Positions 8,588 through 54,306 of a stretch of 64,000 nt of DNA are shown here, in pieces (position 1 is the first letter of the stretch; each line of letters starts with the position of its first letter). The translations under genes were made by a program, and so were the position numbers. A model generated the notes under the pieces. That model saw nothing but the letters and a program-made list of their open reading frames with translations. It made no database searches and was not told the DNA's origin. Location of the stretch: the NCBI GenBank assembly GCA_027488515.1, contig JAIYBN010000005.1, forward strand, positions 186,225 through 250,224, in the 5' to 3' direction. The stretch comes from Pseudomonadota bacterium. GTDB taxonomy: Bacteria > Bdellovibrionota > UBA1018 > CAIMNF01.

Positions 8588-9646
8588 ATGAACATGAAAC
8601 GCACACTCGGTGTGCTCAGCGCATGCGTACTGGCCTCTTTGGCCGTGGTCGCCTGCTCCGAGAGCGCCAAAGCCAAGATCAGCATGGTTTTCAAAGATCC
8701 CCCCAAGGCCGGAATCGTGGCCAAAATCAACGGTGAAGAAATCACCGAAGATCAACTGATCGGGGATGCCCAGATCGAACTCATGCAGATCAAGAAGCAG
8801 GAATACGATCTGAAGATGAACCAGCTCAACAAGATGGTCACTGACCGCTTGCTCGGTGCCGAAGCCAAAAAAGCCGGCCTCGCCAACGCTGACGAGTACA
8901 TCGCGAAGAAGCTCCTCAAGGGCGAAATCAAGATTTCCGACGCCGAATACAAGAAATTCGTGAAGGAAAAGCAGATCCCTGAGAGCAACATCAACGACCA
9001 GGTCAAAGAGCGCATCTATGCCTACATGAAGGAACAGAAGCGCGAAGAAACCGTCACCGCGGCAGTTGCCAAGCTCTCCAAGGGCTCCCCGGTGGAAGTT
9101 TACTTCAAGAAGCCGAAGTCGAACATCCAGGTCGAAATCGGACAATCTCCGATGGCCGGTGGCGAGAACGCAAAAGTCTCCGTGGTGGTTTTCTCCGATT
9201 TCCAGTGCCCCTTCTGCTCTCGCGCGGCCAAAACCGTGTCAGACCTGAAGAAGAAGTACGGAAACAAGGTGAAGATCGCTTTCAAGCACTTCCCACTCCC
9301 CATGCACAAGGATGCCGGCCCTGCGTCGGAAGCCTCCATGTGCGTGCATGAGCAGGGCAAGGACAAGTTCTGGAAATTCCACGATCTCGCTTTCGCGGCC
9401 CAGGACAAGCTCGACGCCGAAAGCCTGGCCAAACACGCCAAGGCTGCCGGAGCTGACGAGAAGAAGTTCAAGGAATGCTTCGACGGCAAGAAGTACGCTG
9501 AATTCGTGAAGAAAGATCTCGCTTACGGCGAGAAGCTCGGCGTCCGTTCGACTCCGACCTTCTTCGTGAACGGCCAACTGCTGAGCGGAGCCCTTCCGAT
9601 CGAGCAATTCTCCGAAGTGATCGACGAAGAACTCGAATCCAAGTGA
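8588..9646 (+). CDS. DsbA-family thioredoxin-fold lipoprotein with N-terminal helical domain
   Basis: Lipobox VVAC, FSDFQCPFC, FKHFPL and GVRSTPTFFVNG (cis-Pro loop). Confidence 0.9.
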   Translation: MNMKRTLGVLSACVLASLAVVACSESAKAKISMVFKDPPKAGIVAKINGEEITEDQLIGDAQIELMQIKKQEYDLKMNQLNKMVTDRLLGAEAKKAGLANADEYIAKKLLKGEIKISDAEYKKFVKEKQIPESNINDQVKERIYAYMKEQKREETVTAAVAKLSKGSPVEVYFKKPKSNIQVEIGQSPMAGGENAKVSVVVFSDFQCPFCSRAAKTVSDLKKKYGNKVKIAFKHFPLPMHKDAGPASEASMCVHEQGKDKFWKFHDLAFAAQDKLDAESLAKHAKAAGADEKKFKECFDGKKYAEFVKKDLAYGEKLGVRSTPTFFVNGQLLSGALPIEQFSEVIDEELESK

Positions 9647-12323: not shown

Positions 12324-13199
12324 ATGAAAAAGCATCTCTTGATTGCATTGAGCGCAATTATCTTCACCGGACCAGCATTCGCCGGACAAACCGGCGTGAA
12401 CGTGGTTTACGGCGAAGACAACCGTAAAGACCTCTTCGAGGTCACCAACCCGATGTACCTGAAGCTCGCACGCTCCACGGTCGCATTGATGAAGACCAAC
12501 AGCCTGTCGCAAAACAGCTCCGGCATGGTCGAAATCAAAGCCCGTAGCTTCCAGCAGCTGATGGGTGTTTGCAACAACGAGCCGTTCTTCGACCAACCTT
12601 CCGGCGGTTTCTGCTCCGGTTCCCTGATCGGCAAGAACATGATCCTGACCGCAGGCCACTGCATCAAGTCCCAGAGTGATTGCATGGGCACGAGCTTCGT
12701 GTTCGACTACGCCGTCACCGCCAAGGGCAAGTATCCCCGTTTCGCCAAAGAAGCTGACGTTTACAAGTGCTCGAACGTGATCCACACCGAAGCATTCGGA
12801 AACGGATCTGATTTCGCAATCGTGACTCTCGACCGCAACGTGGTCGGACGTGACGCACTCGAACTGGCCCGTGAACGCGCCAATCGCGTGATCCCGAACG
12901 GCACCGAACTCCTGATGATCGGTCACCCGGCAGGCCTTCCCACCAAGTTCGACGACGGCGGCAAGGTCCGCAGCAACACCCAGAGCGGGTTCTTCGTGGC
13001 AACCACCGACAGCTACGGCGGGAACTCCGGATCTGCAGTCTTCAACAAGAAGACCGGCAAGATTGAAGGAGTTCTGGTCCGTGGTGAAACCGACTACGTG
13101 TACGCCAACGGCTGCCGCGTATCCAAGGTGTGCAGTGAAACCACCTGCCGCGGTGAAGACGTGACCAAGATCAGCTCGGTTCTTCCTTACCTGAACTGA
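12324..13199 (+). CDS. Secreted trypsin-like (S1) serine protease
   Basis: Signal peptide MKKHLLIAL...AFA and the triad motifs LTAGHC, DFAIV and GGNSGS. Confidence 0.9.
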   Translation: MKKHLLIALSAIIFTGPAFAGQTGVNVVYGEDNRKDLFEVTNPMYLKLARSTVALMKTNSLSQNSSGMVEIKARSFQQLMGVCNNEPFFDQPSGGFCSGSLIGKNMILTAGHCIKSQSDCMGTSFVFDYAVTAKGKYPRFAKEADVYKCSNVIHTEAFGNGSDFAIVTLDRNVVGRDALELARERANRVIPNGTELLMIGHPAGLPTKFDDGGKVRSNTQSGFFVATTDSYGGNSGSAVFNKKTGKIEGVLVRGETDYVYANGCRVSKVCSETTCRGEDVTKISSVLPYLN

Positions 13200-13215
13200 G
13201 CTCGGAAGCTCGAAG

Positions 13216-13253
13216 GCCCGGGGGTGCGAAAGCGCTCCCGGGCTTTTTTTTTT
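13216..13253 (+). terminator. Rho-independent terminator after the protease gene
   Basis: GCCCGGGGG...CTCCCGGGC hairpin followed by T10. Confidence 0.9.
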
Positions 13254-28109: not shown

Positions 28110-30068
28110 TCAATTGTTCTCCCAACGCTCGAGTTCGATCAACTCCTGCCCCACCACCACTTCGTCCTCGGCCCTCACCTTCAGGGACTTGATCCGGACG
28201 GGAATCGGAAGACGGTGCGGGATCAGGTTCTGATGGGTCTCGACAATGAGTACGGTTTGCTTGGGAAGAACTTGGGATTGCTCCTTGAAAAAAATCGAAT
28301 GGACCCGCCCTCCGGTGAGCGCCATCAACGAAAGCGGACGTCCGCGCTCGGACCTGCGGACGGAGAAAAACCAGTTTTTCATCCGGACGATGTAGCGTTT
28401 GTCGTGGACCGGATAGACACAGATCCGCTCGGCTTTGGCCTCTTGGTTCTGGAAATACCCTTTCACCCCTCTCAGAGCACCGGCACCGATCTCGAGACGC
28501 TGGGTCCAGCGAAGCGCAGGCGCTCCGACCGGGAGTCGCTGATTCATCCAGATGAAGCTCTCGTTCTCGGACAAGGGCGGGGTGATTTCTGCAAGCGCCG
28601 CGGAGATGGCCGGCAACCAGGACGGATCCGGCGTTTGTTTCGGGATGAACTCTTCGTCCACGAAACCGGTGAAGAACATCGATTCCTCGACCCAAGGATG
28701 GGAAAGCAATTCGTGTAAAAACCGTTCGTTGGTCTGGATGCCACCCGAAATCCAGATCGATTCGAGAATTTCACGGGCACGGACCAGTGCGGTTTTCCAA
28801 TCCGTGGCGAACAGGGTGACCTGCCCGAGGGCACCGCTCGAACGCCAATCGACATCTTGTCCGGGGGTCACGCCCCAGTGGAGCACCCCTTCGAAATCAC
28901 TCCCGCTCCAGTCGGTCTCCTGACTCACCTCGTGGACCACACCCGGATGGGGCACTTTCAGCCAGGTGTCCTCGGAGTAAAGTTTGAGATTGATGCCGAC
29001 AATCGGAGAGTCTCCGCTCTCATCGGCCGAGATCCTGGGCATGGATTTCGGCGGGGTCCGTAACAAGGAGGGCGCGAGCGTGTGCACCTGCCACTCCACA
29101 GCACGGGTCCGACCGACACTCTCCCAGAGCCTGAATCCGAAATTGAGTCGCCCGAGAGCCTCGGTGAAATAAACTTCCAACCCGTTCGAGAGGAACACGA
29201 GATTCCCGACCCCGACAAAATCGGCCGCATCGAGGAAGCGTGTGGAATAATCCTCGATCTTGAGACGTGTCTCCTCGTCGAGACTTTGGGCAGGACAGAC
29301 CTCGACCCAGTTGCGACCCTCGAACATGAGGGATCCGTCGATGACTGGGAAAAACTCGATGTGTCCTTCCTTGGTCCTCGCAAAAGGCTGGACGAAACAG
29401 CGTGAACTTTCGAGGAAACGCTCAAAAAACAACAACGACGATCCCGAACCCTCACGGATCTGGTTCATCCAGATCGGTACCCATTCGTCGAGCTCCTCGA
29501 TTTCCCGGATCACCCTGACCCCGAAACCGCCACGGGCCCGGTAGGCGCTTTTCAGGACGAACGGCAATACGGCCCGACCTTCACCCATCAAGCGCTGAAT
29601 GGATTGCTCGATCTCACGGGTGGAGGTGACGGGTTCGTCGGAAAGCACCAAGGTCGGCACTCCTGCACTTTTGGCGAGGCCGAGGGATTGGTGGATGTTC
29701 CAGAAGAGTTGGAGATTGCGGGAGGAGGAACAGATCGCGGCCAGACCGGATTGGCGTGCCCAGGTCTCCATTTCGGGGCGCTCACCCCAAAGGGTCACCC
29801 CCGGGTGGACCCAGAGGTGTTCGAAGGGCTCGACCTGGTCCCGTTGCTTGAAGGCTTCGAACAAGACCTTGATACGGGTGCCTGCGTCGGGGTCGGTGAT
29901 TTTGGGAAGCTGGGCCACGTCGGGATCCAAGCCCAATTCGGACAATTGGAACACGGCGAGACCGAGGGCGATGAGATCGTCCCGGATCTGCGTGGTGGCA
30001 GCCCCCTCACCGAGCAATAAAATTGCCGGTGGACGAGGGGCAGTTTGATCAGCTAAACCTAGTTTCAT
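28110..30068 (-). CDS. Degenerate biotin carboxylase + biotinyl-domain protein (pseudo acyl-CoA carboxylase alpha subunit)
   Basis: Collinear with AccC/PccA: HPG, AGVP, FVLKS, FERFL, EVCPAQ, YSED, GGIQTNERFL, then a C-terminal biotinyl-like fold. Key motifs are substituted (see findings). Confidence 0.8.
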   Translation of the reverse strand: MKLGLADQTAPRPPAILLLGEGAATTQIRDDLIALGLAVFQLSELGLDPDVAQLPKITDPDAGTRIKVLFEAFKQRDQVEPFEHLWVHPGVTLWGERPEMETWARQSGLAAICSSSRNLQLFWNIHQSLGLAKSAGVPTLVLSDEPVTSTREIEQSIQRLMGEGRAVLPFVLKSAYRARGGFGVRVIREIEELDEWVPIWMNQIREGSGSSLLFFERFLESSRCFVQPFARTKEGHIEFFPVIDGSLMFEGRNWVEVCPAQSLDEETRLKIEDYSTRFLDAADFVGVGNLVFLSNGLEVYFTEALGRLNFGFRLWESVGRTRAVEWQVHTLAPSLLRTPPKSMPRISADESGDSPIVGINLKLYSEDTWLKVPHPGVVHEVSQETDWSGSDFEGVLHWGVTPGQDVDWRSSGALGQVTLFATDWKTALVRAREILESIWISGGIQTNERFLHELLSHPWVEESMFFTGFVDEEFIPKQTPDPSWLPAISAALAEITPPLSENESFIWMNQRLPVGAPALRWTQRLEIGAGALRGVKGYFQNQEAKAERICVYPVHDKRYIVRMKNWFFSVRRSERGRPLSLMALTGGRVHSIFFKEQSQVLPKQTVLIVETHQNLIPHRLPIPVRIKSLKVRAEDEVVVGQELIELERWENN

Positions 30069-30114: not shown

Positions 30115-31368
30115 ATGAGAGTTCCGGTCGCACTGGTGGACGCGTTCAAAGACGGCTTCGAGCCCGTCTTGACTGACTTCATGTCCCAACAGCGCCTGCT
30201 TCCCGAGGGAGAAACCCTTGAGTCGAAACGTTACCTTTCACGGTCCATTGCGCCCCATGTGAAGGCACTTTCCAACCTCTTCAACCGGATGGAGGGGAGT
30301 CAAACGGATGGCATCGACACCGAAGCCTACTGGACCGAGGGAGGGAGTGCGAAAAACCGACGGCTCGCCTACTTCCTTTCTTTCATGCCCTGCAATCTGT
30401 TCCGGGTCGCCGCGGTCTGGAGTGAATTGCAACGACTGGGATTCAAATGGCCCTTTCCGGCCGATGGTGAGTTCCGCGGACTCGAATGGGGAGCCGGCCT
30501 CGCTTCCGGCGCCTGTGGGATCATCGCAGGAGAGAAGCACGCCCCCCTCGGGCTGCCTGTCCGGGGTAATTTCGCTTTGATCGAACAGAGCAAAGCCGCC
30601 TTGCAAATGGGGAAGGCCTGGTTCGAGCATTTCTCGGGCTCGGGATACGACGCCCGCCCCTTTCACCGCAGAGTCGAACTCGGACGTCGCTGGCTTCCCG
30701 AAGCGGCTCCTCGGTTCCATTTGTTCGTCTCGAGCTATTTCTTGAACGAGAGCGAGCTGCCTCCCGAAGTTCTCGCGGCAAACCTCATCGAAACTTGTGA
30801 GCACCACCTCGAGGACGAAGGCGTGGTGATCCTGGTCGAACCGGCATTGAGACTCCAATCGAGAAAATTGCTCGAGATCCGCAAAGCCCTGATCGCCCAC
30901 CCTAAAGTGAACTCCGGAGCGGTACCGCTTCAAGTCCTCCTTCCGTGTCTCGGACACCAGGCCTGTGGAGCGCTGACCAAAGAAGACGACTGGTGCCATG
31001 AAGAGGTGAATTGGTGGAGACCGGCCTACCTCCGGGAACTCGATGCCTTGGCCGGACTCGACCGGAAATCCCTCCCCTTCAGCTACCTCGTACTTCAAAA
31101 GACCCGGAAATCCCGCGAAGAGATCCTGCCCAGACTCCAGGGCCCGTCCGGAGCACGCCATCGTCTGGTCAGTCCGACTCATTCGCTCGGAAAAAAAACC
31201 TGGGAATTCTTCATGTGTGGAGAAGAGGGAAAACGTCGTGCCCGACTCTCCCGGAAAGCGATCACCGGCGGAAGTGAAGAGCCGGATCGCGGCTCCATTT
31301 TGCAGCGCGCCAAGCTTCATGGCGAGGCAAGCCTGACCCAGATCGACTCCACCGAAGTACTGGACTGA
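30115..31368 (+). CDS. Rsm22/METTL17-like SAM-dependent methyltransferase
   Basis: AYFLSFMPCN, LEWGAGLASG, ILVEPA, PCLGHQAC...DWCH, FSYLVLQK and MCGEEG. Confidence 0.8.
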   Translation: MRVPVALVDAFKDGFEPVLTDFMSQQRLLPEGETLESKRYLSRSIAPHVKALSNLFNRMEGSQTDGIDTEAYWTEGGSAKNRRLAYFLSFMPCNLFRVAAVWSELQRLGFKWPFPADGEFRGLEWGAGLASGACGIIAGEKHAPLGLPVRGNFALIEQSKAALQMGKAWFEHFSGSGYDARPFHRRVELGRRWLPEAAPRFHLFVSSYFLNESELPPEVLAANLIETCEHHLEDEGVVILVEPALRLQSRKLLEIRKALIAHPKVNSGAVPLQVLLPCLGHQACGALTKEDDWCHEEVNWWRPAYLRELDALAGLDRKSLPFSYLVLQKTRKSREEILPRLQGPSGARHRLVSPTHSLGKKTWEFFMCGEEGKRRARLSRKAITGGSEEPDRGSILQRAKLHGEASLTQIDSTEVLD

Positions 31369-32172: not shown

Positions 32173-32932
32173 AGTCGACTCGGTCGCCCCCTTGGGCCGG
32201 AACCATGCGCAGAGTCCGGAGCTCACGGAAATTCCGGAATTCAAACGTGAGCGGATGCCCCACCCGGGTTTCGATGCACTCGAAGGCCCGGGGCTCACTC
32301 AGCATGAACCGGTGGTTCGCGATCGTTTTCTTCGCCATCGCATCCGGATCGAAGGGGATTGGATGGTAGCCCGCACAGACGGTTTGTGCCGCCGGATCCA
32401 GTTCACACGGTATTTCGGTCGGCCGGGGGATCACGCAAAAGATCGCATCAGGAGTGCAGATGAATGGGCGACTCAGACGATCATTCCCGAGAAACCGGAA
32501 TTTGGAACAGTATCCGAATGAAGGAGAATACCAGGTGGGTGCCTCCTCTCTTTTGGGGTTCTCCATCATCAATCTTGCCGTTTCATCGACGTACACAGAG
32601 AGAAACACACCGTCGGCCCCCTCTGCATCCTGAATCACCGGATAAGCTCCCGAGGTGATGTCATTCTCGATCCGGTTCGCCAGTCCGGAAGGCGTCACCT
32701 CGAACCGCACTTGACGCTCCACAAAAGAAAGAGTTCCGACCGGAGAACCCGCAGAAACAGGCGGATGACCCTCGAAAATCATGAGGCGTACCGGGGCAGT
32801 ACCGGCCCCCCCTCTCACCTCCCGCAAAAAAACCGGGGCCCTCAAGGCTTCGGACCGGAACCGGACTTCCCCGCATCCAGTCCCCCACACCGCCAACCAT
32901 CCGATCCAGAAAATCTTTCTCCCGTAGCTCAT
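32156..32932 (-). CDS. Hypothetical lipoprotein
   Basis: MSYGRKIFWIGWLAVWGTGC lipobox-like signal and a Cys-rich C-terminal half. Confidence 0.65.
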   Translation of the reverse strand: MSYGRKIFWIGWLAVWGTGCGEVRFRSEALRAPVFLREVRGGAGTAPVRLMIFEGHPPVSAGSPVGTLSFVERQVRFEVTPSGLANRIENDITSGAYPVIQDAEGADGVFLSVYVDETARLMMENPKREEAPTWYSPSFGYCSKFRFLGNDRLSRPFICTPDAIFCVIPRPTEIPCELDPAAQTVCAGYHPIPFDPDAMAKKTIANHRFMLSEPRAFECIETRVGHPLTFEFRNFRELRTLRMVPAQGGDRVDFSWGS

Positions 32933-33076
32933 TCGGAATCCACCCCTCTTGTCTGACGGAGGGTGCAGAACTCCGGCCAAGAGTCAGGACTGGAAACACC
33001 AAGCATTCCAAAAGGATGACAGATCCCACTCCCGAGCCTGCCGACTGAACTCAAACCCGGATCCGGATTCCGGAAC

Positions 33077-33111
33077 AAAAAAACCCCGGCAGGAGAAACC
33101 TCCCGCCGGGG
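33077..33111 (-). terminator. Rho-independent terminator on the minus strand
   Basis: Minus strand reads CCCCGGCGGGAG-GTTT-CTCCTGCCGGGG followed by T7. Confidence 0.9.
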
Positions 33112-33241
33112 CCCGTAAAGGGTCAAACCGATCACTCCCTCGATCAAGCCAATGCTTTATCCAATCCCTTGGATGGACCTCGACCGCAACCACACTTCGA
33201 TACAGTTGCCTCTTCCCTGAAGCCGATCTCACAACCGATGT
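33077..33241 (-). ncRNA. Candidate small RNA (~165 nt) with three AGGGA motifs
   Basis: Lies between a promoter (33248-33275) and an intrinsic terminator (33077-33111). No credible ORF; several stable hairpins. Confidence 0.6.
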
Positions 33242-33247
33242 AGCTCT

Positions 33248-33275
33248 ATCGTAACGAACCCCCACCGGGTGTCAA
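33248..33275 (-). promoter_or_regulatory. sigma70 promoter for the candidate sRNA
   Basis: Minus strand TTGACA, 16-nt spacer, TACGAT, with an AT-rich UP-like tract at about 33288-33316. Confidence 0.7.
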
Positions 33276-33319
33276 TTCCCCCCCGATCTTTTTTGATAAA
33301 ATATTTTATTTTCGAAATG

Positions 33320-33342
33320 ATCTTAGATTGAGAATCTAAGAT
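33320..33342. promoter_or_regulatory. Perfect palindrome (putative operator) abutting the methyltransferase start
   Basis: ATCTTAGATT-GAG-AATCTAAGAT, 10-bp arms, ending 3 nt before ATG 33346. Confidence 0.55.
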
Positions 33343-33345
33343 GGC

Positions 33346-34146
33346 ATGAAAGAAGATCCCAGCACTCTCTGGCGTGGAAGCTCCGAGGAACTCCTGAAGG
33401 CCCTGCACATTCTCACCCGGGACGGTAAACTGAACGCGGACTCCCGACGCAAATTGAAGCAGGTGCATCACCTGGCCCAGCTCATCGAGCCTTTGGTCCG
33501 GAAGCTCCACACTCCCGAGTCAGGCCTGACCGTCGTGGACATGGGAGCAGGGAAGTCCTATCTCGGATTCATTCTCACCGATCTCTACTTGAAGCAGCTT
33601 GCCGGAGCGCGCATGGTCTCGATCGAGAACCGCCCCGAGCTCGTCGAGCGCTCACAAAAGCTGGCCTCGGATTCCGGATTCGGAATGATGGAGTTCGTCG
33701 CGTCCGACATCGGAGAGGCGCGTGTCGAGGGACCGGTCGGTTTGGTCACCGCTCTGCATGCTTGCGATACCGCAACAGATGATGCGATCCGCTTCGGATT
33801 GCGTCACGACGCCCGGGCCTTCGCCCTGGTTCCGTGTTGCCAGGCAGAGGTGGCCGCACAATTGGGCGGAATCCCTGCATCCGAACGATCCCCCCTGTAT
33901 CGCCAGGCCCTGCACCGAAGGGAGTTCGGAAGCCACCTCACGAACGTGATCCGGACCCTGTATCTGAGCTCACTCGGTTATCAGGTCACGGTCACGGAAC
34001 TCGTCGGGTGGGAGCACTCGATGAAAAACGAGCTGATCCTGGCGGAGAAAAAATCCGGACCGGAGCACCCTGAGGCACTCCGGTCCAAACAACAGCTCGA
34101 CGACCTTCTTCAGACCTTCAAGGTCACACCGACACTTCTCAAATAG
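33346..34146 (+). CDS. Class I SAM-dependent methyltransferase (Methyltransf_32-like)
   Basis: RKLKQVHH, VDMGAGKSYLGF, ALHACDTATD, VPCCQ and EHSMKN. Confidence 0.88.
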   Translation: MKEDPSTLWRGSSEELLKALHILTRDGKLNADSRRKLKQVHHLAQLIEPLVRKLHTPESGLTVVDMGAGKSYLGFILTDLYLKQLAGARMVSIENRPELVERSQKLASDSGFGMMEFVASDIGEARVEGPVGLVTALHACDTATDDAIRFGLRHDARAFALVPCCQAEVAAQLGGIPASERSPLYRQALHRREFGSHLTNVIRTLYLSSLGYQVTVTELVGWEHSMKNELILAEKKSGPEHPEALRSKQQLDDLLQTFKVTPTLLK

Positions 34147-36100
34147 AGCCCTGCAATCCCACCACGATGTTCCGTCCGGGCAAGGGCGCCAGGTCCTTCA
34201 GGAAGGAAATGTGGTTGCGTGCCTCGACATCGAACAGGTTGTTGGCGCGGAGGATCGCTCTCAGGTTTCCGAAGCTTCCTGAGAACGGAATTTCCGCTCC
34301 GAGATTCAACATAGTATAACCACGGGTGGTGAGCTCGTTCGCTGCGATCACGTTCTGACCCTCGACCCGCTGGAGCTCACCATCAATTGAAAAATAGGAC
34401 TGCTGGTAGCGCACACCGACCGTTCCCCGAGCCGGCACCATCCGGGGTAGATTTCCTCCGCCGCCGAGATCCAGGCCCCGCATCCAGTCGGCTTTGAAGT
34501 CGAACTCCCAGTTCCCGTTCAAAAAGGCCTGCCCGAGCTTGTGGGTGTACTCGAATTCCGCTCCAATCAGGCGGGCCGGAGTCGATCGAAATTCGTAGAT
34601 CTCCATGTCGTCCGTCGTATCCCCGGGCGTCCCCATGTCATCCTGGGTCCCGGTCGGGGTCAGCGCGAGATAATTCCGGAAGTCCTGAACATAGGTGGTG
34701 AGCCGCGCTTCGTTTTGCCGGTCCTTCACCTTCAGAGAGACCTCGAGCCCGAGGTTTTTCTCGGTCCGGAAGGAGCTGTTACCCTTTTCGACAATCCCGG
34801 TCGCCATGTGAGCTCCGTCAGCGAAAAGCTCCTGATAGTTGGGTGCACGTTCGGTATAGGTCGAGTTCAAACCGACCGTCCACTCTTGCCCGGTGATCGG
34901 AGCTGGAACGTCCACTTGGAAACCGAGCGAGCCACTCGGAGCGAAGAAGTTGCGGGTCGTTTCTTCGGTGAGCAGATTTCCCGCTTCACCCGTCACCGAG
35001 GAAGCATCGAGCCTGACCCCGAACGAAGGACGGATCGCTCCCCACTTTGCCTCTTGGAGGCCGAAGAGCGCCCAAGACGAGCTCCGGTTCGTCGGCAAGA
35101 AGGCCTCATCGCCGAGAGCACTCAGACGCGAATACTGCTGCTGAAGCCCGACAGTGGTATTCCCGCTTTTCGCATCCACCCGCGATTCGATCCCGCGGTT
35201 GCGGAAGACGGTTCCGATTTCATCGCCCTCACGTTCTTGATGCTCGTACTTGGTGTAGGCCGACTTGAAGCGGATCGAATCGAAAAACGCAAAGCGCTTG
35301 ATTTCACCCGCGGCATCTAGCCTGACCCGGTCCATCCCGATTCTCACGCTCTCCTCGGCGACTGTTCCGTAGTCGGTCAGATAGCCTGAGAGCGAAAGCC
35401 CCGCAAATCCGTTCTCAAAGGGGCGACTGATCCCGATCGCGGCCTGTGACGTCCGGTTCGAGCTGTTCTCGACCTTTTCCTGCGCAGTGGGAACCGCATA
35501 ATTCTCGGTACTCCGGATCGATCCGTCGATGTGGAACACATAATTGCCGAGCTTGTAGCAGGCCACTCCTCCCGCTGCTTTTCCTTGATCCATACTCGAA
35601 TAACGGAGGCTGAAGTCGGAATGTCCGGTTTCGATACCGGTTTCTGAGATCCGGTTCGTGCGCAGGTTCACCACACCGCCGACCGCGCTGTTCCCGTACA
35701 GAAGTGCCGAGGGTCCGCGCAGGATCTCGACCGATTCGAGTAGCAGGGGATCGATAGAAAGAGCGTGATCCGGACTCGCGCCTGATGCGTCTAGGAGCCC
35801 GATCCCGTTCTCGAGCATTCGGACCCGATCCCCGTCCAAACCCCGGATCACCGGGCGGGAAGAGTTCGGACCGAAGAAGCTCGAGCTGACCCCGACTTCC
35901 TGCGAGAGTGTTTCGCCAAGCGTGGTCTGTTTCTTACGGTCGAACTTGGCTCCACCGATCTTGGAAACAGTCGGCAGAAAGTCGAATGCCGAGCGACGCT
36001 CCGGGGTTCCGAGCACGCTGATTTCAGGGAGCTCGAGTTCGTGGGCTGTTGCAGAGAACACAGGCAAACACAGGGCCAAAAGAATGTGTCGGGTCTTCAT
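34139..36100 (-). CDS. TonB-dependent outer-membrane receptor, ZnuD-like
   Basis: Signal peptide, TonB-box-like LPEISV, plug motifs SRPVIRGLDGDRV...SPDHA and EILRGPSALLYG, and C-terminal NNLFD...GRN. Confidence 0.9.
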   Translation of the reverse strand: MKTRHILLALCLPVFSATAHELELPEISVLGTPERRSAFDFLPTVSKIGGAKFDRKKQTTLGETLSQEVGVSSSFFGPNSSRPVIRGLDGDRVRMLENGIGLLDASGASPDHALSIDPLLLESVEILRGPSALLYGNSAVGGVVNLRTNRISETGIETGHSDFSLRYSSMDQGKAAGGVACYKLGNYVFHIDGSIRSTENYAVPTAQEKVENSSNRTSQAAIGISRPFENGFAGLSLSGYLTDYGTVAEESVRIGMDRVRLDAAGEIKRFAFFDSIRFKSAYTKYEHQEREGDEIGTVFRNRGIESRVDAKSGNTTVGLQQQYSRLSALGDEAFLPTNRSSSWALFGLQEAKWGAIRPSFGVRLDASSVTGEAGNLLTEETTRNFFAPSGSLGFQVDVPAPITGQEWTVGLNSTYTERAPNYQELFADGAHMATGIVEKGNSSFRTEKNLGLEVSLKVKDRQNEARLTTYVQDFRNYLALTPTGTQDDMGTPGDTTDDMEIYEFRSTPARLIGAEFEYTHKLGQAFLNGNWEFDFKADWMRGLDLGGGGNLPRMVPARGTVGVRYQQSYFSIDGELQRVEGQNVIAANELTTRGYTMLNLGAEIPFSGSFGNLRAILRANNLFDVEARNHISFLKDLAPLPGRNIVVGLQGSI

Positions 36101-36120
36101 GGGTTTTCACGCTAATACAA

Positions 36121-36137
36121 ATGCAACTGGTTTGCAT
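36121..36137. promoter_or_regulatory. Putative Zur box upstream of the TonB-dependent receptor
   Basis: ATGCAAC-TGG-TTTGCAT, a 17-bp near-palindrome 21 nt upstream of the receptor ATG. Confidence 0.7.
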
Positions 36138-36146
36138 CTAAAAAAA

Positions 36147-36740
36147 TTAGCGGAGCTGGAAGCGGATCGGAATATGGAGGGTGACGGACTTGGCGATCGG
36201 CACCGGGGGCAAGCGCCCCACACTCCGCACTGCCTCCAAGGCAGCCCGATTGAGACTCTCGAAAGGACAGGGATTCTCGACCTCCGAGTGCAGCAGTCCC
36301 CCGTCTGCCGCGACCTCGATCTTGAGCATCACGGTTCCTTCTTGCTCGTTGAACTGCGCTTCGCGGGGATAGCGCTTGGTTTGATGAATCCGGGCGATGA
36401 TTCCCGCCAGGTAGCGCTCCATCTCACCGGGGGGCGGTCCGCTGGCATCACGACTCAGACCCGGATTCCCCGGCGTACCCCGTGGAACGGGAGGGCTCAA
36501 CGGAGGGGCCGGTTCTGTGGTCACCGACTCTTCAGGTTCCTCATGAGGAATCCCGAGCTGATGAACCGCCTCATGAACAGCTTGTTTGACCTCCTGCTCG
36601 ATCCGGATGTTTTCGAGCGTGATGCTTTCGTCTTTTTTCTCGGGTTCACGGGATGCAAAAAGAAGCACCGACACCGCACCCACCAGGGCCAGGTGGAGCA
36701 GGATGCTCTTCAAAAAGGGGCGTCGCATTCGTTTTGCCAT
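36147..36740 (-). CDS. tonB: Energy transducer TonB
   Basis: TM anchor with SILLH, Pro-rich linker, and C-terminal YPREAQ...EGTV...LNRAALEAVR...PIRFQL. Confidence 0.9.
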   Translation of the reverse strand: MAKRMRRPFLKSILLHLALVGAVSVLLFASREPEKKDESITLENIRIEQEVKQAVHEAVHQLGIPHEEPEESVTTEPAPPLSPPVPRGTPGNPGLSRDASGPPPGEMERYLAGIIARIHQTKRYPREAQFNEQEGTVMLKIEVAADGGLLHSEVENPCPFESLNRAALEAVRSVGRLPPVPIAKSVTLHIPIRFQLR

Positions 36741-36764
36741 TGATCGAAACCTTGCGCGCATTCT

Positions 36765-37235
36765 ATGGTGTTGCAGATGATTTGCAACCATAAGCATGAA
36801 AAATCCGAGTCCCTGGAGGATCGGATCCGGGAGGCCGGACTGAAACTCACCCCCTCCCGACTCCGGGTGCTGGAGCTTCTGGAAGCCAAACGCTGCCTGA
36901 TGACCGTGGACGAGGTGGTGACGGCCCTCACCCGCAAGGCGAAAAAGAAAGCCGACTGGACCACCATCTACCGGACCCTACTGAGCTTCACAGAAGCCGG
37001 AATCGTGAGCTCCACCCTCCTGGATGATGGCGTGGCGCGTTACGAATACAAGTGTCTCGCCCCCGGGGACACCCACCACCATCACCACGTTCAGTGCAAA
37101 TCCTGCGGTAAAATCGCTCCCATCGAAGCGTGCGAGATCCAGGCGATCGAAAGCCTGGTGGCGCGAATGGGCTACACCGGGCTTTCACACAAGCTCGAAT
37201 TCACCGGGATCTGCCCGGAATGCCAGGATTCCTGA
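36765..37235 (+). CDS. zur: Fur-family metalloregulator, probably Zur
   Basis: GLKLTPSR, TTIYRTL, HHHHHVQCKSCGKI and HKLEFTGICPEC (two CxxC). Divergent from tonB and a ZnuD-like receptor. Confidence 0.82.
   Translation: MVLQMICNHKHEKSESLEDRIREAGLKLTPSRLRVLELLEAKRCLMTVDEVVTALTRKAKKKADWTTIYRTLLSFTEAGIVSSTLLDDGVARYEYKCLAPGDTHHHHHVQCKSCGKIAPIEACEIQAIESLVARMGYTGLSHKLEFTGICPECQDS
36771..36787. promoter_or_regulatory. Second putative Zur box at the tonB/zur divergent junction
   Basis: TTGCAGA-TGA-TTTGCAA has the same TGCA-N7-TGCA geometry as 36121-36137. Confidence 0.55.
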
Positions 37236-37296: not shown

Positions 37297-37386
37297 GGAG
37301 GGGTGTCCGAGTGGTTGAAGGAGCACGCTTGGAAAGCGTGTAAAGGGTCACACCTTTCGTGGGTTCGAATCCCATCCCCTCCTCCA
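37297..37386 (+). tRNA. tRNA-Ser (anticodon GGA)
   Basis: Acceptor GGAGGGG/CCCCTCC, D-loop GAGTGG, anticodon arm CACGC-TTGGAAA-GCGTG, long variable arm AAAGG/CCTTT, T-arm GTGGG-TTCGAAT-CCCAT and encoded CCA. Confidence 0.97.

Positions 37387-50308: not shown

Positions 50309-54306
<3,998 letters not shown>

Follow-up and report, generated by a model that had tools for sequence, protein, structure and literature searches.

Analysis of a 64,000-nt window of Bdellovibrionota DNA (positions 186,225 to 250,224 of contig JAIYBN010000005.1, assembly GCA_027488515.1) identified a gene for a small RNA (sRNA) on the minus strand at 33077–33241. The comparative evidence indicates that the locus is a real and strongly conserved gene for a free-standing sRNA and that the RNA constitutes a new family in a sub-lineage of the Bdellovibrionota. 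The predicted transcript is approximately 165 nt in length and extends from the first base at A33241 to the end of a T-run. The gene, the selection that maintains it, its independence from the neighboring genes, its hairpins, and the constraint on its loops are apparent from the alignments of homologues. Three of the hairpins carry hexaloops of the form ANGGAN, and the RNA is a candidate decoy, or sponge, for the protein CsrA. A previous inspection of the same DNA, referred to here as the sequence-only reading, had proposed a sponge sRNA at this position, with a leader of the downstream lipoprotein gene as the alternative.

Homologues and Conservation of the RNA

Eight further sequence variants of the RNA were found in metagenomes and metagenome-assembled genomes (MAGs) of Bdellovibrionota. 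Eight full-length sequences were aligned (alignment A4), and the counts of loops, stems, and blocks out of eight refer to this alignment. The covariance model R1 was built from the same sequences and scores between 127 and 196 bits in the eight full-length homologues. Against the window, the RNA body is 95–97% identical in four close relatives and 89% identical in both L087, where 13 nt are duplicated, and L091. The neighboring coding sequences are 73–91% identical to those of the window in the close relatives and 68–91% identical across all relatives. In the sRNA promoter region, the four closest relatives are 88–94% identical to the window, and L091 is 78% identical. The 144 nt past the terminator could not be aligned in any relative except L082.

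Two distant copies of the RNA were detected. The first is located at L095:12944–13119, where the nearby Rsm22-like protein is 69% identical to that of the window (nhmmer E = 3e-28; 147 bits with the covariance model). The second is found in a Bdellovibrionales MAG at L097:17844–18003, with an Rsm22-like protein of 63% identity (nhmmer E = 6e-23; 127 bits). Conservation in related genomes, which the sequence-only reading had named as a check on its RNA, thus reaches as far as these two loci. The named homologues of the Rsm22-like neighbor all belong to the Bdellovibrionales, Bdellovibrionota, or Oligoflexia, which places the source of the window among the uncultured Bdellovibrionota.

The reach of the family was examined further. 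A scan of the window and 94 loci with R1 revealed no second copy of the RNA; a match at 13168–13250 of the window was considered as a paralogue and rejected, being just a terminator. No RNA was found with nhmmer or R1 beside 80 proteobacterial homologues of the adjoining methyltransferase, which among the matches listed are approximately 51–60% identical and come mostly from Betaproteobacteria. At the FG-1 locus, where the Rsm22-like protein is 52% identical, the synteny is gone and no RNA was detected within 10 kb on either side. The P0089 locus (Rsm22 57% identical), which is known from its gene map alone, has a gap of 636 nt in the equivalent place. Metagenome contigs scanned with the 19-mer GATCGGTTTGACCCTTTAC yielded three chance matches and no homologues; this pattern is overly specific because L095 and L097 diverge at its 3′ end.

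Promoter, Terminator, and Boundaries

In the alignments of homologues, the conserved region opens at ACAUCGG, 7 nt past the –10 hexamer, and closes at the T-run. The start of transcription was therefore placed at about A33241. The sigma-70-type promoter TTGACA-16-TACGAT was found on the minus strand at 33275–33248, as the sequence-only reading had claimed, with the –35 and –10 hexamers at 33275–33270 and 33253–33248, respectively. TTGACA is invariant across the homologues, and the –10 hexamer is TACGAT in six of seven and TACCAT in L097. The A/T-rich tract previously seen upstream of the promoter is likewise present, and a UP-like element was read off the sequence at 33276–33315, 5′ of the –35 hexamer on the same strand. 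L095 and L097 have A/T tracts at the equivalent place, and their sequences differ from that of the window.

The intrinsic terminator is located at 33077–33114 of the minus strand (RNA positions 128–161 for the stem, where the window coordinate is 33242 minus the RNA position). It consists of a stem at 33114–33081, a UUUC loop, and U7. A hairpin of 12 bp followed by T7 had been described earlier; both elements were found, and the stem is in fact 15 bp long. Ten of the 15 pairs are G–C, and five show compensatory changes among the homologues. The minimum free energy of the 33241–33077 transcript is –63.1 kcal/mol, which at z = –1.79 relative to shuffled sequences is only mildly unusual.

A search of the whole window with Rfam at gathering score gave no family near the locus, and the sole match is a tRNA-Ser at 37297. 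Weak matches to NsiR1, Spot_42, RybB, SSRC10, DUF3800-I, and others, obtained at E ≤ 10 or E ≤ 5 with the RNA and two homologues, were discarded: they are inconsistent, are driven by the terminator, and fall far under the gathering scores. The Rfam comparison suggested in the sequence-only reading therefore provides no known family for the RNA, the housekeeping families included.

Three ANGGAN Hexaloops under a Common Constraint

The three copies of AGGGA that had been reported at 33218–33214, 33169–33165, and 33140–33136 are present at those positions and lie in the loops of hairpins HP1, HP3, and HP5, respectively. The hexaloop hairpins HP1 and HP5 are retained in 8/8 homologues and HP3 in 7/8. 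The loops of HP1 are AGGGAA, AGGGAC (five sequences), AUGGAA, and ACGGAA. Those of HP3 are AGGGAU (six sequences), AUGGAA, and an irregular (A)GGGGA(U) in L097. For HP5 the loops are AGGGAG, AGGGAA (three sequences), ACGGAA (two sequences), AAGGAA, and AGGGAC. Of the 24 loops (three in each of eight sequences), 23 keep A1, G3, G4, and A5. All four nucleotides occur at the second position (G, C, U, or A) and at the sixth (A, C, U, or G). At least 10 independent substitutions are found at positions 2 and 6 and one elsewhere in the loops; by our own estimate, the probability of this distribution is roughly 1e-4 if substitutions were spread evenly across the six loop positions. The hairpin HP4, which has no GGA, is lost in L097, and the GGA hairpins are retained there.

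The clustering of these hairpins was compared with their frequency elsewhere. Hairpins in which an ANGGAN hexaloop is closed by 4 bp or more number 18 in the 128 kb formed by both strands, with three within 85 nt at this locus and 15 at all other positions. When the 127-nt body was shuffled 20,000 times with its dinucleotides preserved, three such hairpins never arose, and nine of the shuffled sequences had two. The centers of successive hexaloops are 49 and 29 nt apart.

Duss et al. describe the high-affinity target of RsmE/CsrA as an ANGGAX hexaloop set directly on a stem (PMC4005645), and Dugar et al. write the high-affinity CsrA motif as CANGGANG (PMC4894983). HP1 fits CANGGANG, and the fit is exact in five homologues. 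Judged by these motifs, HP1, HP3, and HP5 each display a predicted optimal site for one half-site of a CsrA/RsmA dimer.

Architecture of the RNA

The 5′ part of the RNA opens with Pa (33224–33237, RNA 5–18), a tentative hairpin CGGUU-GUGA-GAUCG in which 85% of the aligned cells are paired. In L097 the equivalent is (C)GGUA-GGAUU-UACC(G), where U–G is replaced by A–U and G–U by G–C, and Pa is weak in L095. It is followed by HP1, GCUUC-AGGGAA-GAGGC, at 33208–33223 (RNA 19–34), with the hexaloop at 33218–33213 and the consensus GCUUC-ANGGAN-GARGC. The HP1 stem is paired in 8/8, and U–G has become U–A in three. The form CUUC-AGG-GAAG assigned to this hairpin in the sequence-only reading occurs in the window sequence alone, with GACG in five relatives, whereas the hexaloop form is conserved.

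HP2 is a variable hairpin, GCAAC...GUUGC, at 33186–33209 (RNA 33–56). The base of its stem, which had been recognized earlier, is kept in 7/8, with four of the five pairs in L097. RNAalifold proposes an alternative pairing. The apex differs in length and sequence, and L091, L095, and L097 carry different inserts there. A 13-nt tandem duplication, ACUGUAUCGAAGU, is located in HP2 at L087:2289–2314 and appears with the same sequence in L088; its presence in two independent assemblies indicates that HP2 tolerates changes of length. HP1 and HP2 cannot both form fully because the 5′ GC of HP2 (33208–33209) also belongs to the 3′ arm of HP1. For the 5′ domain as a whole, RNAalifold, the minimum free energy folds of single sequences, and the GCAAC/GUUGC hairpin disagree, and there is too little variation to decide among them. 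The heptamer AUCGGUU occurs twice in the RNA.

The 3′ part is closed by the helix P2, GGUCGAG:UUUGACC (RNA 57–63 with 115–121), which never varies and encloses HP3, HP4, and HP5. Its 5′ arm forms the last 7 nt of the block AAGUGUGGUUGCGGUCGAG (33179–33197), which is identical in 8/8. HP3, AUCCA-AGGGAU-UGGAU, is located at 33159–33174 (RNA 68–83) with its hexaloop at 33169–33164; it corresponds to the second AGGGA hairpin of the sequence-only reading, with the same ATCCA/TGGAT stem. The stem has A–U changed to U–A in L085 and G–U variants in L091 and L095, and in L097 the hairpin takes the irregular form AUCCA-GGGGA-UGGAU. HP4, AAGC-AUUG-GCUU, lies at 33146–33157 (RNA 85–96) and has the loops AUUG, UUUA, and GAAA. 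The whole of HP4 is deleted in L097, and it is therefore dispensable. HP5, GAUCG-AGGGAG-UGAUC, lies at 33130–33145 (RNA 97–112) with its hexaloop at 33140–33135. Its stem is kept in 8/8 with one A–C mismatch in L097. The form drawn earlier for the third AGGGA hairpin is corrected here to (UU)GAUCG-AGGGAG-UGAUC(GG), with G–U pairs. The segment GG-UUUGACC-CUUUAC (33115–33129) contains the 3′ arm of P2 and then a U-rich single strand that leads to the terminator; in this region GAUCGGUUUGACCCUUU is invariant in 8/8. The core can also be folded in another way, in that CGGUCGAG has two possible partners, UUUGACC and CUUGAUCG, the latter being the 5′ arm of HP5.

Taken over the eight sequences, 96.8% of the cells of the whole structure can pair. 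Seven pairs are changed on both sides, compared with 1.3 in shuffled alignments and 0–2 when the partners are slid, and most of this signal comes from the terminator.

Proposed Function

The fixed A, G, G, and A of the loops strengthen the sponge function suggested by the sequence-only reading and do not prove it. Set against the points below, the proposal that the RNA acts as a CsrA decoy is judged to be evenly balanced. According to this proposal, the strong sigma-70 promoter, with its perfect –35 hexamer and UP tract, would yield an abundant 165-nt RNA ended by the intrinsic terminator. The 5′ part would fold into a short hairpin, HP1, and the variable hairpin, and the 3′ part into the P2-closed multi-branch junction with HP3, HP4, and HP5. 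The hexaloops of HP1, HP3, and HP5 would bind CsrA, about 1.5 to 2 dimers for each RNA molecule. CsrA would then be titrated away from the sites at which ribosomes bind to mRNAs, and repression would be relieved whenever the sRNA is made. The sRNA promoter would presumably be subject to regulation. The CsrA of Bdellovibrio bacteriovorus functions as a repressor that acts on a GGA-hairpin leader, and predicted functional CsrAs are enriched in the Bdellovibrionota (PMC13443453).

Several results weigh against this proposal. The Rfam models of CsrB, CsrC, RsmX, RsmY, and PrrB_RsmZ give no match to the RNA of the window at E ≤ 10 or to L095 and L097 at E ≤ 5. No csrA gene was found by phmmer among the six-frame open reading frames (ORFs) of the 64-kb window and approximately 130 kb of related loci. 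The good sites number just three, compared with about 5–9 dimers bound by RsmZ/CsrB, and the GGA of HP3 is 0.3–0.9 unpaired in the predicted ensembles. Outside the terminator the support from covariation is thin because the helices of the body hardly vary. The upstream activating sequence of GacA/UvrY has the consensus TGTAAG-N6-CTTACA, and no match to it with up to three mismatches is present in the region upstream of the sRNA. Two blocks of 17–19 nt outside the loops (AAGUGUGGUUGCGGUCGAG and GAUCGGUUUGACCCUUU) are invariant in 8/8, and a simple sponge has no need of them. Finally, an anti-correlation has been reported between antagonist sRNAs and FliW, the antagonist of CsrA that is a protein (PMC4894983). 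The Bdellovibrionota are expected to use the ancestral, FliW-type control of CsrA.

The invariant blocks bear on a trans-acting, base-pairing sRNA of the Hfq type, for which the possibly single-stranded 5′ AUCGGU and AAGUGUGGUUGC, or the G-rich loops, would be the seeds for mRNAs, and the likeness to CsrA targets would be incidental, secondary, or one half of a dual function. Such a role is considered unlikely, though some features favor it: the RNA has its own promoter and terminator, a long U-tail (U7), and the U-rich CCCUUU before the terminator, which recall sRNAs of the Hfq class; the two invariant blocks are unexplained by a sponge; and the proposed partner of AAGUGUGG varies, but the block itself is constant. 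However, seeds are normally confined to one short region, and here three separate loops share a single A-N-GGA-N constraint. A base-pairing seed would not leave the second position free in three loops. A phmmer search of the window and related loci did not find hfq, a result counted as uninformative.

Slightly less probable again is a structured RNA that recognizes another protein or a ligand, in which the multi-branch junction would be the functional part and the GGGA loops would serve for tertiary contacts or for another RNA-binding protein. The helix that closes the junction and its flanking blocks are extremely conserved and show no compensatory changes, in contrast to the freely covarying terminator, and the two alternative folds of the core would also fit such a role. 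The junction is not rigid, however, given that HP4 is deleted in L097 and that the length of HP2 varies. No consistent Rfam match, even a weak one, is shared across three homologues, the folding energy reported above is only mildly unusual, and the only nearby candidate for a partner gene is the methyltransferase.

For the CsrA decoy, the invariant blocks and the alternative pairings suggest that the RNA has more than one fold, a seed for base pairing, or a second protein-binding site. The blocks AAGUGUGGUUGC and GAUCGGUUUGACC may carry a second activity. Because these blocks are invariant and free of GGA, a dual-function RNA or another function keeps an appreciable probability. The fuller proposal, that the RNA represents the first dedicated family of CsrA-antagonist sRNAs outside the Gammaproteobacteria, evolved independently in the Bdellovibrionota and possibly with a second activity in its invariant blocks, is put forward tentatively, with the balance somewhat against it.

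Independence from the Neighboring Genes

The RNA is very probably its own transcription unit, a stand-alone sRNA, as the sequence-only reading had preferred. The conserved promoter and terminator and the persistence of the RNA without the downstream gene argue for independent transcription, and the exact point at which conservation starts agrees with this assignment. L095 lacks the lipoprotein gene; its RNA is followed by a convergent gene, with no ORF farther along on the strand of the RNA. In L097 the gene after the RNA is unrelated to the lipoprotein (BLASTP E = 0.7).

The lipoprotein-like gene of the window (32932–32156, minus strand) encodes 258 amino acids with no Pfam match. Its ATG is at 32932, as noted previously, and is located 144 nt beyond the T-run. 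Just seven clusters of homologues were found, with identities of 56–90%, and in every contig with a lipoprotein homologue that extends far enough, the RNA has the lipoprotein gene on one side and the PF13679 methyltransferase on the other. A promoter of the GG-N10-GC type is the hallmark of sigma-54. A predicted promoter of this type, TGGCCGGAGTTCTGCA, is found on the minus strand at 32964–32979, 33 nt before the ATG. Its GG (32978–32977) and GC (32966–32965) are invariant in 7/7, inside a spacer that is otherwise unalignable.

These results bear on the second suggestion of the sequence-only reading, a cis-acting riboswitch or attenuator leader that governs read-through into the lipoprotein gene. 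The arrangement in the window and the seven closest variants is compatible with a leader, in that both are encoded on one strand, the RNA 5′ of the lipoprotein gene and the terminator between them. That reading is rejected as very improbable because the RNA is kept without the lipoprotein gene in L095 and L097, and because the 144-nt spacer contains a sigma-54-type promoter that can drive the lipoprotein gene alone. In addition, no riboswitch family in Rfam matches the RNA, and no anti-terminator pairing is evident on reading the sequence, a search that was not exhaustive. Least probable of all is that the locus is not an RNA gene: the 72-amino-acid ORF that begins with TTG in HP5 (32929–33147) and has a similar start, MIEG(V/M)IGLTL, in L095 is an artifact of the conserved nucleotides that the common peptide start merely mirrors, it runs across the terminator into unalignable DNA and its frame is broken by the indels of L097 (CCCUUUUAC), and a promoter or operator belonging to the methyltransferase would not account for conservation that reaches 165 nt from the methyltransferase promoter and halts at a terminator with a covarying stem.

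Divergent Methyltransferase and Shared Promoter Region

The only gene that adjoins the RNA in all of the homologous loci (L082–L091, L095, and L097) is a divergent gene for an S-adenosylmethionine (SAM)-dependent methyltransferase of family PF13679, located in the window at 33346–34146 on the plus strand (Pfam E = 5e-41). Two palindromes were found between the divergent genes. The perfect 8+8 palindrome TCTTAGAT-N5-ATCTAAGA (33321–33341) is centered approximately 88 nt 5′ of the sRNA start, and 4 nt separate its end from the ATG of the methyltransferase. No second copy occurs in the window, and part of the palindrome is conserved as far as L095 and L097; it may serve the divergent promoter pair as an operator or form a hairpin in a 5′-untranslated region. 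The perfect 14-bp A/T palindrome ATAAAATATTTTAT (33296–33309) lies between the divergent promoters and is present in close relatives only. It overlaps the –35 hexamer and the spacer of the predicted methyltransferase promoter TTGATA-17-AATGAT (33293–33321) and is a possible regulatory site in the shared promoter region.

A cluster of genes for Fur, TonB, and a TonB-dependent receptor is located near the sRNA at 34139–37235. On the other side, the Rsm22-like protein used above to compare loci is a bacterial Rsm22-like methyltransferase encoded at 30115–31368 on the plus strand. It stands beside a minus-strand gene (28110–30068) for a biotin-carboxylase-like ATP-grasp protein of 652 amino acids, in which CPSase_L_D2 and Biotin_carb_C are the only domains detected, and the pair is syntenic in all of the Bdellovibrionota loci examined.

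The DNA of the window is of an ordinary chromosomal kind, comes from a Gram-negative bacterium, and has a G+C content of 57%; HflX, Obg, MurJ, H+-PPase, Fur, and TonB are among its products. Two proteins encoded farther from the sRNA have composite architectures. The minus-strand gene at 51001–53319 encodes a protein of 772 amino acids in which a queuine tRNA-ribosyltransferase (TGT) is joined to a C-terminal MnmC-like Methyltransf_30 domain, an unusual architecture. The plus-strand gene at 8588–9646 encodes a protein of 352 amino acids with a SurA-like N-terminal domain and a DsbA/thioredoxin domain. In the MAG that contains L097 (GCA_018266375.1), the interval from hpt to the sRNA (L097:13551–17482) holds an RVT_1 reverse-transcriptase gene (398 amino acids), an ORF of 561 amino acids, and a lipoprotein-like ORF of 300 amino acids. 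A different gene occupies this place in the window, and the three-gene set may be an inserted retroelement or defense module.

Significance and Comparison with Known CsrA Antagonists

CsrA is present in most bacterial genomes, and its RNA antagonists are known essentially from the Gammaproteobacteria. They are described as a gammaproteobacterial feature, with many CsrA-bearing bacteria lacking them (PMC4894983, PMC7652899). For this reason a confirmed sponge from the Bdellovibrionota would be of note. Almost nothing is known of CsrA control in this phylum, although the CsrA of B. bacteriovorus is functional (PMC13443453). If the proposal holds, sponge RNAs arose more than once, and the gene, its promoter, and its three mutable loops would offer a handle on CsrA control in predatory and related bacteria. 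Should the CsrA assignment be wrong, the RNA would still represent a new sRNA family that is under strong constraint and has an architecture open to testing. Among the known kinds of RNA, it is probably best placed with the CsrA-titrating sRNAs, as a new family whose membership in that class is still to be proven.

Dual-function sRNAs of the McaS type, which combine base pairing with CsrA binding, resemble the new RNA in having few GGA sites beside other conserved single-stranded sequence. The two share no homology, and a dual function of the new RNA is a conjecture drawn from its invariant blocks. The 5′ leaders of flaA and hag, from FliW-type systems, also present adjacent GGA hexaloops, two in number and able to titrate one CsrA dimer (PMC4894983). 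Systems of this kind are expected in flagellated bacteria outside the Gammaproteobacteria such as Bdellovibrio. The new RNA differs in that it is the leader of no gene and has three sites rather than two.

CsrB and CsrC of the Enterobacteriaceae are, like the new RNA, products of free-standing genes, and the proposed action is the same, namely the titration of CsrA by repeated GGA loops. CsrB and CsrC are much longer (about 250–370 nt) and have many more GGA sites; they require BarA-UvrY, and CsrD and RNase E mediate their turnover. The new RNA has no match to their Rfam models.

RsmX, RsmY, and RsmZ of Pseudomonas, together with RsmY and RsmZ of Legionella, are also compared. The new RNA is set apart from them by its Bdellovibrionota host, its two long invariant blocks free of GGA, and its multi-branch junction, and it has no sequence or structure match to them in Rfam, three good sites only, and no GacA-type box. 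Like the new RNA, they are stand-alone sRNAs of approximately 110–170 nt, each with its own promoter and intrinsic terminator. In both, several A(N)GGA(X) loops are set directly on stems (PMC4005645), and only the A, G, G, and A of these loops are constrained.

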